Assembly (NCBI GenBank): GCA_003165595.1
Contig: PLWQ01000025.1
Coordinates: forward strand, 39,093 to 103,092
Direction: 5' to 3'
Origin: Fibrobacterota bacterium
GTDB lineage: Bacteria > Fibrobacterota > Chitinivibrionia > Chitinivibrionales > FEN-1185
Length of the DNA: 64,000 nucleotides
A program made the position numbers and the translations under genes. Of this stretch, positions 32,593 through 40,371 are shown in pieces (position 1 is the stretch's first letter; every line of letters begins with the position of its first letter). The notes beneath the pieces are model-generated. The model had not been told where the DNA came from, did not search any database, and saw nothing but the letters and a program-made list of their open reading frames with translations.

Positions 32593-33420
32593 TCAATCGC
32601 TGCGGGAAAAGCTGAGTGCGGCAAGCCCTACGAAGACAAGTCCCGCCAGCGCGATAAAAGCCACCTCATGGCCGGCAGTGACGGGGATGCCCAGCACCGA
32701 AAGATCAAGGCCCATGGCCTTGCGAAGCAGCGGGTCCATGCCGCCGCTCGGCAGAAGGATCTTCTTGAAAAGGTCTACGGCATATGTCAACGGGTTAATC
32801 TTGACCAGAATGTTGAGCCACGGCGGCATGCCGCTGAGCGGGAAGAACACGCCGGACAAGAACAGCATCGGGAAGATGATCACCTGGACAACCACCTGGA
32901 AGCCCTCAGAGGTCTTGAGCAGGCTGGCGATGATGAGGCCCAGAGACGACAGCGTGAACGCCACGAGAAACATGGCCGGCACGAGCTGCGCGACAATAAG
33001 CGGCGTGAGTTTCGCACCCGCAAACGGCGCAAACACGAGCATGAGAAGCCCCTGGATCACCGCCACCGTGGACCCGCCGAGGATTTTGCCAACGGCTATT
33101 GAAACGCGCGATACGGGCGACACCAGGATCTCCCTGAGATAGCCGAACTCCCGGTCCTGCACCACCGACAGCGCGGAAAACAGCGACGTGGTGAACACGG
33201 TCATGCCGATGATGCCGGGAAACATGAACCCGGCAAAGTTGAACTGGCCAAGTGGTCCCGCCGTGCGCGAGGCGCTCATAAGAGACCGGATTGCACCGCC
33301 CATACCGGTGCCGAAAACCACAAGAAACATGAAGGGCATTGCGAACGACCCGAACAGGCGGCCCTTATTGCGCGCGAACCGCAGGATGTCGCGGTACCAC
33401 AGTGCGAATATTGCTTCCAT
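32593..33420 (-). CDS. ABC-2-type transporter permease
   Basis: 275 aa, six TM segments, ABC-2 membrane family pattern. Confidence 0.85.
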   Translation of the reverse strand: MEAIFALWYRDILRFARNKGRLFGSFAMPFMFLVVFGTGMGGAIRSLMSASRTAGPLGQFNFAGFMFPGIIGMTVFTTSLFSALSVVQDREFGYLREILVSPVSRVSIAVGKILGGSTVAVIQGLLMLVFAPFAGAKLTPLIVAQLVPAMFLVAFTLSSLGLIIASLLKTSEGFQVVVQVIIFPMLFLSGVFFPLSGMPPWLNILVKINPLTYAVDLFKKILLPSGGMDPLLRKAMGLDLSVLGIPVTAGHEVAFIALAGLVFVGLAALSFSRSD

Positions 33421-33518
33421 TCCTTCTCCGTTTTAACGAACATCTATAAAAGATCGGATTCCTTTTCTTCATCTCCTGCCCGGCCCCACTCCTTCGGGGA
33501 ACGCGCAAACTTTGGGAT

Positions 33519-37150: not shown

Positions 37151-40100
37151 GCGCGCCGCCTCCGAACAGTCTCGACGAACGAGCGTATACGGATGCCCAG
37201 GGCGCCGAGGGCTTCTCCTTCGTCAATCTTGAGCACGAGCGGTTGTTTGCCCGAGGTTGCGTTCATGATGCGGCTGAGCTCATCGGAAATGATGGCGTCG
37301 TGGCCGCAGCCGAAGCTCACGAGCTGCACTACTTCGAGGCACGGATGAGCGGCCGCGAACAGCCCCGCGGCATAAATTTCGGAATGGAACGGGTTGTATA
37401 GTTCGGGCCGCACATTGTGAAGGTCGAGCCCGGACATGTCCGGCAGTGAGTCAATGGTGAGGAGCGGAATGCCGAGCGACGAAAATATCTCGGGAATGCC
37501 GTGGTTGATGTACGGATCGTAATGGTACGGCCGCCCCGCCAGAATGACGCCCATACGGTTTTCCACTTCAATCGACGCGAGCACCCGGCGGCCTTCGTCC
37601 CGCACGCTTTGCCGAAACGACGCCAGCGCCCTTCCGGCCTGCGAGATCGCCTTGTCGACCTGTTTTCGCTCAAGCCCGTATTCGTCGCGCAGGAACCGCG
37701 CCACCTGGCTGTCGCGCATCCGATCGTCGTACCAGTTGAACGCCGGGCAGTCGACAACCGTTGCGCCGCGCGCATGCGGCTTGTTCATCGCAGAAAGCAC
37801 TATCGGATATCCCTGCACCACCGGACACATGTGCACCGCGGCGTGGTCGGAAAGCGTGGACGGCACCGCGATCATGATGGGCGCGAAGATCCGGTCAACC
37901 TTCTTTTCCACCAGATACTCGATGTGGCCGTGTGCGATCTTGGCCGGAAAGCATATGTTGTCGGATGCCACATACCGCATGCCTTTTTCGTGCAGGCCGT
38001 GGTTGCTCCGGGGCGACAGCACCACCGAGAATCCCAGCGAAGAAAACAGGGTTTTCCAGAAGGGAATGCTGTTGTAAAATTCGAGGACGCGCGGGATGCC
38101 AATGGTGGTTTCCCTGCGGTCGGCAGGCGCGCACCCGCCGTACTCTTTGAGCATCGCGGTCTCGCGAAACCGCACCGTGGACGGAGCCGGGCGCAACACA
38201 ACCGGGGCCGACACCGCAGTGCGGGATTCGATGTTCCCCTTTTCGCAGCGGTTGCCGGCGCAGTACACCGAGCCGTTGTTGAACCGGACAATGGTCCGCT
38301 TGCAGTTGTTGGTGCAGCCTTCGCATTTGTCGTTTGTGACGCCCGAGCACGCGAAGCCGCGAAGCGCCTCAAACCCGATAAACGACGACGCGCCGCCGTC
38401 GCGCATGGCGTCGATAGTAAGCAGCGCGATGCCGAGCGCGCCCATTTCACCGGCATGCCTGGGCCGGATCACGTGGGCGCTGGTGTGCTGTTCGAATGCC
38501 CGGAGCACCGCATCGTTCTTGAACGTGCCGCCCTGCACCACGATCGTGCTACCGAGGTAGGAAACGTTGCGGTCGCGGATCACCTTCATGAACAGGTTGT
38601 CGATGACCGAGCGGCACAGCCCCGCGATGATGTCTTCTATGGATTTCCCGTTTTTCTGTTCGGTGGTGATGGACGAATTCATGAACACCGTGCAGCGCGA
38701 GCCGAGCTTGGAGGGGCTTTGTGCGCAGAACGCAAGCTCCGCAACTTCCTCAATGGGAATATTGAGGGAACCCGACAGCGTCTCGATGAACGATCCGCAC
38801 CCGGCGGAGCACGCCTCGTTGAGGTACAGGTCGCAGATGACGCCGTTCTGGATCCGCATCGCCTTCATGTCCTGGCCGCCAAGGTCCAGAACAAACGTTG
38901 CATTGGGAACTTCGTGAAGCGCGGCATGCGCGTGCGCGATAGTTTCGACGGTGTGGAAGTCGGCGCCGAATGCCTTTGCCACCATCGCCTCGCCGTACCC
39001 GGTAGCGCCCAGCCCCTTCACGTTGAGCCGGACGTTGCGGCCGCCGTAGCTATCGTGTATGTCAAGTAGGGCTTTTCGCACCACGCCGAGCGGATCGCCG
39101 GAATTCGAAGCATAAAACTTGCTGATGATGTCGCCCGCGTTGTCGACAAGCACGCATTTTGTGGTGGTTGATCCGGCGTCGATGCCGATGTACACGTCGT
39201 GTTGGCTTCCCGGCGCCAGAGACCGCGGGACAAACGCGGGCACCGCATGACGCGCTCGAAACGCGTCGGCCTCCCGGGACGTCTGGAAAAACGGAGGGGC
39301 TGGCACCGCATCCTCCACAATGACGCGATTCGCTCCCCACAGCCCGGACAGAGACTTCTTTCCCAGGTAATGCCGGTGTGACTCGGCAGGCATGATCCCG
39401 ATTGCGAGCGCCGCGCCGATCGCCACCGTGACCTGCGGAAACGGCGGCAAAAGGATTTCTTCTTTGGCAAGGCCGAGGTGTTTTGCGAACACCGCAACGA
39501 GCCTGCGGTTGAACTTGAACGGCCCCCCCAGGAACACCACGGGCGCGCCAAGCTGCATGCCGTGGCCCAGACCCGTAATGGTCTGCTTGGCAACGGCGTG
39601 GAACACCGAAAGCACGAGGTCTTCCTTGCTGACGCCCATATTGAGCAGGGGTTGGAGGTCGGTCTTTGCAAAAACGCCGCACCTGCCCGAAATATCGAAC
39701 GCGGTAGTTCCCTTCTTCGCGGCTTCGTCGAAACGTTCTATAGGAAGATCTATCAGGCTGGCAATCTGGTCGATAAACGCGCCGGTGCCGCCCGCACAGC
39801 ACCCGTTCATCCTCATGTCGGAAAGCTTGGGCTTTCTCGTGGTTTCGTCTTCGCAGAAAAAGAGGATCTTGGCGTCCTGGCCGCCCAGCTCGATGCATGT
39901 CTTTGCAAAGGGGAAAAGCTCCGACACCGCGATGCTGTTGGCGATCACCTCCTGCACAAAGCAGCCGCCGATTATATCCGCAAGCGGCTCGGCGCCGCTG
40001 CCGCAGATGCATGCTTTAAACTGGGCCAGCGGAAAGGCCTCATGTACTTCGGAGAGGAGTCCGGAAACGGTTTCGGCCTGCCTCGAAAAATGGCGCCGGT

Positions 40101-40371
40101 ATTTCCAGAACAGCAGTTTCTTTTCGCCCGGCTCAAGGACCGCTATCTTTGCCGTTGTGGAGCCGACGTCGATGCCGACCCACAGCACCGTAGTGATGTC
40201 ACTCGAATTCCGCGCTTTTCCCTGCAATCCTTCGGAAAGAAGCGCGTTTTCGTGCTCATCGTAGTAAAGCGTGGCTCCGGAATACAGGAGCGATGCGCTT
40301 GATGGCCCCGCGTCGGTTGCAGAAGGCTCCGGCGCACCAGCCTGTGCCTCTGGCGATGTTTCTTCGTTCAT
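37147..40371 (-). CDS. plsA: PlsA-like protein: two BcrAD/BadFG (HgdC-type) activase ATPase modules fused to a DUF2229/dehydratase-like domain
   Basis: 1074 aa. GIDVGSTTAKIAV and GIDAGSTTTKCVL are the ATPase phosphate-1 motifs. Each module has a cluster-ligand-type motif (CCAGGTGAFID; CSAGCGSFIE). It continues with IGIPRVLEFYNSIPFWKTLFSSLGFSVVLS (DUF2229-like). The symbol is assigned from architecture only. Confidence 0.6.
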   Translation of the reverse strand: MNEETSPEAQAGAPEPSATDAGPSSASLLYSGATLYYDEHENALLSEGLQGKARNSSDITTVLWVGIDVGSTTAKIAVLEPGEKKLLFWKYRRHFSRQAETVSGLLSEVHEAFPLAQFKACICGSGAEPLADIIGGCFVQEVIANSIAVSELFPFAKTCIELGGQDAKILFFCEDETTRKPKLSDMRMNGCCAGGTGAFIDQIASLIDLPIERFDEAAKKGTTAFDISGRCGVFAKTDLQPLLNMGVSKEDLVLSVFHAVAKQTITGLGHGMQLGAPVVFLGGPFKFNRRLVAVFAKHLGLAKEEILLPPFPQVTVAIGAALAIGIMPAESHRHYLGKKSLSGLWGANRVIVEDAVPAPPFFQTSREADAFRARHAVPAFVPRSLAPGSQHDVYIGIDAGSTTTKCVLVDNAGDIISKFYASNSGDPLGVVRKALLDIHDSYGGRNVRLNVKGLGATGYGEAMVAKAFGADFHTVETIAHAHAALHEVPNATFVLDLGGQDMKAMRIQNGVICDLYLNEACSAGCGSFIETLSGSLNIPIEEVAELAFCAQSPSKLGSRCTVFMNSSITTEQKNGKSIEDIIAGLCRSVIDNLFMKVIRDRNVSYLGSTIVVQGGTFKNDAVLRAFEQHTSAHVIRPRHAGEMGALGIALLTIDAMRDGGASSFIGFEALRGFACSGVTNDKCEGCTNNCKRTIVRFNNGSVYCAGNRCEKGNIESRTAVSAPVVLRPAPSTVRFRETAMLKEYGGCAPADRRETTIGIPRVLEFYNSIPFWKTLFSSLGFSVVLSPRSNHGLHEKGMRYVASDNICFPAKIAHGHIEYLVEKKVDRIFAPIMIAVPSTLSDHAAVHMCPVVQGYPIVLSAMNKPHARGATVVDCPAFNWYDDRMRDSQVARFLRDEYGLERKQVDKAISQAGRALASFRQSVRDEGRRVLASIEVENRMGVILAGRPYHYDPYINHGIPEIFSSLGIPLLTIDSLPDMSGLDLHNVRPELYNPFHSEIYAAGLFAAAHPCLEVVQLVSFGCGHDAIISDELSRIMNATSGKQPLVLKIDEGEALGALGIRIRSFVETVRRRRA

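Follow-up and report, generated by a model that had tools for sequence, protein, structure and literature searches.

Bacterial ether lipids and membrane-spanning lipids are at the root of both the 'lipid divide' debate and palaeoclimate proxies in wide use. The enzymes named for them in the literature are PlsA/PlsR, Ger, Mss, the elb cluster, Agps and Tes homologues, and which anaerobes produce such lipids is poorly constrained. Validated lipid reductases include Q8XL47/Q8XL48, AGL49404, SHJ90043 and the PlsA proteins of Enterococcus faecalis and L. cremoris. The layout Act1-Act2-Red1-Red2 has been described for PlsA/PlsR and for PlsA encoded by a single open reading frame (ORF) (PMC12838417), a BBD core or BBD+ layout has been described for Ger (PMC13159169), and Ger and PlsA are at present not separable by sequence (PMC13274423). 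In this article, I will discuss a locus of this kind from an uncultured, anaerobic Fibrobacterota bacterium, lying in a 64,000-nucleotide stretch of contig PLWQ01000025.1 that was analyzed over its full length (the window), and I consider it probable that the locus encodes a split PlsA/PlsR-type lipid ester reductase together with an enzyme of the radical S-adenosylmethionine (SAM) type acting on the chains of the same lipids, with an adjoining ATP-binding cassette (ABC) transporter pair outside the unit. The reductase family itself is known, while the coupling with the radical SAM protein is new and modestly supported. The genes in question are the following:

37147-40371, minus strand, PlsA-like subunit of 1074 aa (Pfam, NCBIfam, motif positions)
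35876-37150, minus strand, PlsR-like subunit ('Red2') of 424 aa (alignment to fused homologues, AlphaFold2 (AF2) model and Foldseek)
34471-35856, minus strand, class-B (B12-binding-domain) radical SAM protein of 461 aa (Pfam, AF2 model and Foldseek)
33519-34496, minus strand, DrrA-type ABC transporter ATPase of 325 aa (TIGR01188), a facultative neighbor and not part of the core
32593-33420, minus strand, DrrB-like ABC-2 permease of 275 aa (PF01061), likewise a facultative neighbor

An ORF check placed all five on the minus strand from 40371 to 32593 and confirmed each coordinate and spacing on which the initial annotation, made from the DNA letters and their translations, had based its description of five tightly packed co-oriented genes; in gene order, the first two genes overlap by 4 nt, 19 nt separate the second from the third, the third and fourth overlap by 26 nt, and 98 nt separate the last two. 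The large reductase subunit contains two BcrAD_BadFG modules (PF01869, E 2e-62) and reaches 276 bits with TIGR00241, for which the cut-off is 125, and the motifs by which two HgdC/BcrAD-type activases had originally been recognized are found at residues 66 (GIDVGSTTAK) and 396 (GIDAGSTTTK), with their cysteine motifs at 191 (CCAGGTGAFID) and 521 (CSAGCGSFIE), in agreement with the Pfam domains. In HgdC-like activases, two cysteines per module bridge a [4Fe-4S] cluster. Here, C192/C231 and C521 (or C525)/C560 are conserved in the family alignment (A4), as are the four cysteines of a linker motif (C683, C686, C690 and C709) and three (C807, C849 and C1022) in Red1, the DUF2229 domain that had been noted behind the activases and that is matched over its full profile (PF09989, residues 756-976, E 6e-65). 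A sequence search also pairs the ATPase modules with the PDB sequences of MbdQ, HadI and HgdC. The protein has thousands of homologues, most of them 45-53% identical to it and made as one chain of about 1450-1530 aa. The N-terminus of the large subunit is further extended by about 60 low-complexity residues (1-62) that occur only in the close clade, more distant homologues aligning from about residue 45-65 on.

The 424-aa partner, whose start overlaps the stop of the 1074-aa gene by 4 nt, supplies the part that the longer homologues carry at their C-terminal end: its residues 11-423 align with about 1033-1445, the last 410 or so residues, of the fused proteins at 46-49% identity. Among the 82 loci with both parts, 65 are fused and 17 are split, and since the split form is confined to the window's own clade, the reductase pair is a clade-specific fission of one enzyme. 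The partner has a divergent second DUF2229/2-hydroxyacyl-CoA dehydratase (HAD)-beta-like domain with three invariant cysteines (C76, C111 and C372), and the cysteine motifs of the two reductase halves match each other, three cysteines in each. A sub-threshold DUF2229 match is all that Pfam returns for it, and each of 12 family members shares this match; when the partner was searched as a profile against PDB sequences and Pfam, nothing significant matched, and HGD-D (PF06050) was not matched in the 1074-aa protein, the partner or the 12 family members. Structure prediction is more telling, in that the AF2 model (predicted local distance difference test, pLDDT, of 87) has as its 12 best Foldseek matches in the PDB only subunits of DCCP (the double-cubane cluster protein), HadBC (2-hydroxyisocaproyl-CoA dehydratase), BzdNO or MbdON (benzoyl-CoA reductases), with template modeling scores of 0.41-0.49. 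As modeled, the partner has the dehydratase/benzoyl-CoA-reductase/double-cubane fold, so the earlier label 'HgdA/B-like' is right at the level of fold and finds no counterpart at that of sequence, with neither HGD-D nor a PDB sequence match.

The architectural traits of PlsA/Ger are present, namely two activases in one chain, DUF2229 fused behind them and a second reductase domain directly downstream, and the pair is probably a split form of a PlsA/PlsR-type enzyme within the PlsA/Ger family of ATP-driven lipid ester reductases; the split architecture had been proposed at the outset, and Pfam, alignment and predicted fold all bear it out. Whether a 1-alkenyl or a 1-alkyl ether would be made cannot be told from sequence. 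A competing explanation would make the pair a 2-hydroxyacyl-CoA dehydratase, or a benzoyl-CoA or double-cubane-type reductase, for fermentation or xenobiotics, which would fit the efflux pumps nearby, and indeed the fold and the ATPase modules are common to those enzymes and NCBI names the homologues 'acyl-CoA dehydratase activase'. I find this highly improbable, because HGD-D was not found and the benzoyl-CoA reductase equivalogs all remain far below their cut-offs (TIGR02259 at 130 vs 578, TIGR03192 at 98 vs 380 and TIGR02261 at 80 vs 313), and because the combination of a double activase, DUF2229 and a second DUF2229-like domain is the layout given for PlsA/Ger (PMC12838417, PMC13159169). 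2-Hydroxyacyl-CoA dehydratases have HGD-D subunits and a separate homodimeric activator of about 260 aa, whereas here the activators are duplicated and fused and the likeness is at fold level only; nor did Pfam matches in the window reveal CoA-transferase, ferredoxin or acyl-CoA genes nearby. In a 59%-identical relative without the radical SAM gene, a PlsC-type acyltransferase and a HAD-family hydrolase lie 1.2 kb downstream of the pair (L002:15641-17001), and this acyltransferase, which also speaks against a non-lipid enzyme, is a small extra pointer to a lipid context.

The 461-aa protein encoded behind the pair matches PF02310 (49.6 bits vs a cut-off of 32.1) and PF04055 (79 vs 29.5) and has a CxxxCxxC motif at C172/C176/C179; in the family alignment (A1) these three SAM-cluster cysteines are the only invariant ones, and no auxiliary-cluster cysteines are conserved. 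Its AF2 model (pLDDT 88.5) finds AprD4, TsrM, MgmA, CysS, TokK and OxsB as the best Foldseek matches, which I take to be class-B enzymes or look-alikes. Pfam and Foldseek agree on the class-B radical SAM gene that had been placed after the pair, and by domain matches and model the protein belongs to this class. However, no curated family fits: the BchE, PhpK, HpnJ and HpnR equivalogs of NCBIfam score 122 vs 481, 96 vs 600, 91 vs 578 and 75 vs 650, and its models for a ladderane-type lipid radical SAM enzyme, MgmA and AprD4 are also far below threshold. Hydropathy reveals a hydrophobic C-terminal helix at about 418-436, kept in the family consensus, which suggests contact with the membrane. The family, at 48-57% identity, extends from Fibrobacterota to Clostridia, Tissierellia, Veillonellales, Spirochaetes, Syntrophia, Coriobacteriia and a Kosmotogales metagenome-assembled genome (MAG), and an exhaustive representative search resolved it into a few clusters followed by a large gap in score and then by many B12-radical SAM clusters at 31-41% identity (E 1e-50 to 1e-70), where ten second-tier representatives had no informative names.

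What connects the two enzymes is the position of their genes. The genome survey with the radical SAM protein covered its best 80 genome matches, all at least 48% identical, protein searches covered the best 120 matches, and a reductase or radical SAM gene counted as a neighbor within 10 kb. The best genome matches are MAGs labeled Fibrobacterota, Chitinivibrionales and Chitinispirillaceae, and the radical SAM gene directly follows the pair in L001, L003, L004, L007, L009, L092, L093, L096, L116 and L168, the last being a further Chitinivibrionales MAG found through its 76%-identical radical SAM protein; reductase identities of the lineages with this arrangement are 98, 84, 82, 82, 79, 76, 67 and 65%, and the intergenic gap is 17-40 nt throughout the window's clade. 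In addition, four Tissierellia-like loci (L064:10001-15609, L031, L034 and L053, including one on a Sporanaerobacter chromosome) have the radical SAM gene in convergent orientation beside a gene for a fused BB-type PlsA/Ger homologue of 1425 aa; this reductase shares only 38-40% identity with that of the window, the 3' ends of the two genes touch or overlap, and a neighbor-joining tree puts the Tissierellia-like and Fibrobacterota copies of the radical SAM protein in two separate clades. Since the two adjacencies differ in orientation, reductase subfamily and phylum, a chance origin is hard to accept; a crude estimate, allowing about 4 adjacent slots per 3000 genes and a few tens of lineages, puts the chance at roughly 1e-3. 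The coupling suggested in the initial annotation does extend beyond this genome, recurring in nearly all Chitinivibrionales-like relatives and in the Tissierellia-like group, and the two independent adjacencies make a moderate, not strong, case for a shared pathway: the link is real but narrow, restricted to clades and not general to PlsA/Ger. As side observations on the radical SAM gene, its immediate upstream neighbor in L064 is an aldehyde dehydrogenase gene, and a TetR regulator gene lies directly upstream of its orthologue in seven Firmicutes loci of several families (L065, L066, L071, L072, L073, L080 and L088); a TetR regulator also adjoins pls in Enterococcus faecalis (PMC9702350).

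The ABC pair requires a different conclusion. The initial annotation had taken all five genes as one pathway in which ester lipids are reduced, modified in their chains and exported or flipped by a dedicated ABC-2 transporter, and yet the same-strand row goes on past 32593 into genes (Pfam) for TetR, a membrane fusion protein (MFP), a major facilitator superfamily (MFS) transporter and an outer membrane factor (OMF), and then for an MFP, a resistance-nodulation-division (RND) pump and an OMF, down to 22193; because the row continues into these efflux genes, the five-gene boundary was that reader's choice and not a natural one. The ATPase reaches 346 bits with TIGR01188 (DrrA; cut-off 312), and the permease has a PF01061 match at E 8e-36, about six hydrophobic segments by hydropathy and 192 bits with TIGR01247 (DrrB), i.e., below the cut-off of 223. 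The likeness to DrrAB exporters thus lies in an ATPase that passes the DrrA model and a permease with the ABC2_membrane fold and that number of segments, and the differences lie in the DrrB score, in the lack of polyketide or antibiotic genes nearby and in a patchy occurrence among close relatives. The pair was found only in the 98% group (L004-6 and L089) and in one 82% lineage (L009 and L096), 2 of about 9 lineages that keep the radical SAM gene, and it is absent, with the radical SAM gene followed by TetR or other genes and the synteny otherwise the same, in L003, L007, L092, L093, L168, L001 and L116.

Even the tight junction between the radical SAM and ABC genes turned out to be secondary. 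Compared with relatives at 98% identity, the window is short of about 195 bp (34471-34500 against L004:15860-16060). The deleted stretch contains the native stop codon of the radical SAM gene and the 180-nt spacer before the ABC gene, and this deletion produced the 26-nt overlap and left about the last 11 residues of the radical SAM protein non-native. The 461-aa variant is a real allele, since it is recorded on four contigs (P0121). The overlap was also considered as a sign of ancestral coupling and rejected, being the product of the deletion. In favor of the five-gene pathway, the same deletion puts the start of the ATPase gene inside the end of the radical SAM ORF, so that co-transcription is probable in this strain, the pair sits at the same position in the second lineage (82% identity), and ABC-2/DrrAB-type systems export lipophilic molecules. 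I nevertheless consider a five-gene unit very unlikely, given that seven related lineages keep the reductase and radical SAM genes without the pair, that the Tissierellia-like loci are also without it, that an origin in the efflux island is simpler with two further efflux systems and TetR adjoining, and that inner-membrane ether lipids are not known to need a dedicated exporter in characterized PlsA or Ger hosts. The exporter, absent from most relatives that keep the other genes, drops out of the proposed unit, and rather than a dedicated part of the pathway, the ABC pair is probably a lineage-specific insertion where the locus meets a conserved efflux island.

Several points weigh against the three-gene lipid pathway that is left and have to be set beside it. 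The pair is assigned to the PlsA/Ger family by its architecture, its fold and an identity of about 50% to fused homologues that carry no annotation, rather than by phylogeny with validated enzymes; cobalamin binding by the radical SAM protein is only predicted, and its best structural match, AprD4, uses no cobalamin; and the ABC pair may have been present ancestrally and lost more than once instead of inserted. The linkage also has gaps, in that the radical SAM gene is missing in a close relative (L091, 76%) as well as in L002 (59%) and L094/95 (50%), no radical SAM gene lies within 10 kb of about 70 reductase loci with 38-50% identity, about 70 of the best 80 genomes with a radical SAM orthologue have no reductase within 10 kb, and no conserved neighbor of the radical SAM gene was seen in these 80 beyond lineage-local synteny, its other neighbors being unrelated housekeeping genes. 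Synteny within one order can moreover persist without a functional tie. Taken to its end, this becomes the explanation that the adjacency is meaningless, with the radical SAM protein acting on an unrelated peptide, cofactor or small molecule and the synteny neutrally inherited in Chitinivibrionales, and it is helped by a radical SAM gene that stands alone with variable neighbors in most genomes, by L091 and L002, which keep the reductase without it, and by closest structural relatives that act on aminoglycosides, tryptophan, protein glutamine and carrier-bound substrates. Such neutral inheritance seems to me unlikely, as it leaves aside the two independent adjacencies in different phyla, reductase subfamilies and orientations with their low estimated chance, the hydrophobic C-terminal helix with the membrane association it suggests, and an intergenic gap of only 17-40 nt across the clade.

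It could also be asked whether the radical SAM protein is an Mss-type enzyme for tail-to-tail coupling, so that the three genes would be a Ger+Mss operon for ether-bound diabolic-acid or branched glycerol dialkyl glycerol tetraether (brGDGT)-like lipids. Like Mss (AGL49750; WP_129545148.1), which has been validated for T. maritima and T. ethanolicus and is reported to co-occur genome-wide with Ger, it is a radical SAM protein of anaerobes; its phyletic spread resembles the published one for Mss (Firmicutes, Spirochaetes, deltaproteobacteria, FCB, candidate phyla and a Kosmotogales MAG; PMC13159169), and it has both the conserved cysteines, three in number, and the hydrophobic regions near the C-terminus by which Mss is described (PMC13159169). 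Furthermore, Sporanaerobacter acetigenes, which has the radical SAM gene beside a BB-type reductase in an L064-type locus, makes brGDGT analogues (PMC13274423), and since many B12-radical SAM clusters sit at 31-41% identity with E values of 1e-50 to 1e-70, the BLAST cut-offs of the literature could label the protein an Mss homologue. Unlike what such an operon would predict, the orthologue in S. acetigenes is A0A1M5YXI1 / SHI16752.1 while the published Mss of that strain is A0A1M5Z5M3, with no second S. acetigenes protein among the listed radical SAM matches of at least 51% identity, and the best 80 genome matches include no genus for which Mss is validated or assigned (Thermotoga, Thermoanaerobacter, Butyrivibrio and Dictyoglomus). 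A search seeded with a Tepidanaerobacter radical SAM protein had no Thermoanaerobacter protein among the matches listed. Because the S. acetigenes orthologue differs from its Mss and the Mss genera are missing, the family is at least a distinct orthologous group; the protein may be a remote relative of Mss, from which it is set apart by orthology and distribution rather than by direct sequence comparison. As for Tes/GDGT-MAS, which are recognized by likeness to MJ0619 and extra [4Fe-4S] ligands, the protein has three invariant cysteines only and no likeness by sequence or structure, GDGT-MAS matching neither in the PDB profile search (E <= 1) nor among the top 50 Foldseek matches. I therefore regard the Mss-type operon as quite unlikely, and the membrane-spanning-lipid reading first given to the locus, which these results do not sustain, as speculative.

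Returning to a split reductase followed by a chain-modifying radical SAM enzyme, the course of events can be sketched by analogy with the described family. The activase pseudo-dimer would hydrolyze ATP to push a low-potential electron into the clusters of both reductase domains, and these would reduce a diacyl glycerophospholipid at its sn-1 acyl ester, giving a 1-alkenyl (plasmalogen) or 1-alkyl ether in an ATP-driven, ketyl-type reaction. The radical SAM gene, 19 nt downstream, would most likely be co-transcribed with the pair, and its product would then modify the hydrocarbon chain of the same lipids through C-methylation or other radical C-H functionalization, a step suggested by gene linkage and fold. 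More tentatively, and with odds that I would place well short of even, the whole family could be a previously unrecognized lipid-tail-modifying enzyme of anaerobes that works with PlsA/Ger, either as a chain C-methylase or as a second type of tail-coupling enzyme. If this were true, the family would be a candidate for one of the missing steps to methylated or branched, brGDGT-like ether lipids in anoxic settings; if the radical SAM protein were unrelated, the locus would be one more PlsA/Ger homologue beside efflux pumps. In either case, it brings in a split reductase from a further lineage, Fibrobacterota (Chitinivibrionales-like), and points to a well-conserved class-B radical SAM family linked to the reductase twice independently.

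The rest of the window has less to say about lipids. Three further features, the first of which is context only and probably a separate unit, are:

31881-32513, minus strand, TetR-family regulator (Pfam)
3783-2740, UPF0104/LPG-synthase-TM protein
14021-10072, divergent B12-radical-SAM-like ORF and two ketosynthase-like genes

The efflux island (22193-32513, minus strand) comprises TetR, MFP, MFS (EmrB-like) and OMF and then MFP, RND (AcrB-like) and OMF, and, whether or not the ABC pair is there, it lies directly downstream of the reductase/radical SAM genes in every Chitinivibrionales-like relative examined; its TetR gene is the first, overlaps the MFP gene by 4 nt and directly follows the radical SAM gene in relatives without the ABC pair. 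The genes upstream of the locus encode an RlmD-like methyltransferase and a serpin. Scans for promoters and terminators found as many as in shuffled sequence and, being at chance level, are uninformative, and an Rfam scan of the whole window (e.g., for a cobalamin riboswitch) gave no match. On the minus strand at 9587-17297 lie a 1085-aa ORF without a Pfam domain (a weak TolB-propeller), a 423-aa B12/radical-SAM-like ORF with both Pfam matches below cut-off, a beta-ketoacyl synthase, a ketosynthase-like second subunit and a cupin, possibly a separate lipid or polyketide-like cluster. The lengths of its first two ORFs (1085 and 423 aa at 17297-12750) resemble those of the reductase subunits, and a second reductase pair was considered here and rejected, as there is no activase or DUF2229 and the 423-aa ORF is the divergent B12-radical-SAM-like one. 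The bacterial serpin (42115-43740, minus strand; Pfam E 4e-129) stands beside a 707-aa Ser/Thr protein kinase (43399-45522, plus strand), and its listed start is about 130 residues upstream of that called in close relatives (401-406 aa); since the two ORFs overlap as listed, the true start is probably further in. A polyamine cluster (52010-56002), with S-adenosylmethionine decarboxylase, ornithine/diaminopimelate/arginine decarboxylase and spermidine synthase, varies in position among relatives and is closer in L003 and L007, upstream of the kinase, and at 58736-62496, behind small ORFs without a Pfam match, a 984-aa protein that weakly matches an outer-membrane usher may mark the locus of a chaperone-usher-like surface structure. 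With a diguanylate cyclase, kinases, the serpin, two-component proteins, polyamine synthesis, the usher-like protein and efflux pumps making up the other genes, the lipid-remodeling theme once proposed for the whole window is thin, few of its genes being lipid-like.

Among known systems, the nearest is Clostridium perfringens PlsA/PlsR (CPE1194/CPE1195; Jackson et al., 2021, as cited in PMC12838417 and PMC9702350), which, as described in these two papers, has the same two-gene layout, with a large subunit of two activases and the first reductase domain, a smaller second subunit encoded immediately downstream, a combined length of 1498 aa (here, about 1400 aa), an anaerobic host and membership in the benzoyl-CoA reductase/2-hydroxyacyl-CoA dehydratase superfamily, the comparison being one of descriptions and not of sequences. 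It differs from the present locus in that the fission here is separate and clade-specific (65/82 sampled homologues are fused), in the N-terminal extension of about 60 aa and in the class-B radical SAM gene that follows, none being mentioned for pls operons in the literature found. Ger (Thermotoga maritima Tmari_0479/AGL49404 and Desulfatibacillum alkenivorans SHJ90043; PMC13159169) shares the BBD core, the anaerobic lifestyle and, as expected substrate, an ester-bound glycerolipid, and the published homology criteria (E <= 1e-50, coverage >= 30%; PMC13159169) would very probably take in the 1074-aa protein; Ger, however, is one polypeptide, and small HGD-D/DUF2229 segments are annotated in its C-terminal part, whereas here that part is a separate gene without an HGD-D match. 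For the radical SAM protein, the lipid-acting class-B enzymes (the HpnP/HpnR hopanoid methylases, the GrsA/B ring synthases and the glycerol monoalkyl glycerol tetraether (GMGT) methylase Gmm) offer the closest parallel, in that an N-terminal B12-type Rossmann domain and a radical SAM barrel are shared, as are a lipid gene linked to the enzyme's own and a C-terminal helix of hydrophobic character. The HpnR and HpnJ equivalogs fail, the likeness to Grs and Gmm is again by description and not by sequence, and, in contrast to the class-B enzymes that act on isoprenoids, the substrate here would be a fatty-acid-derived ether or ester lipid.

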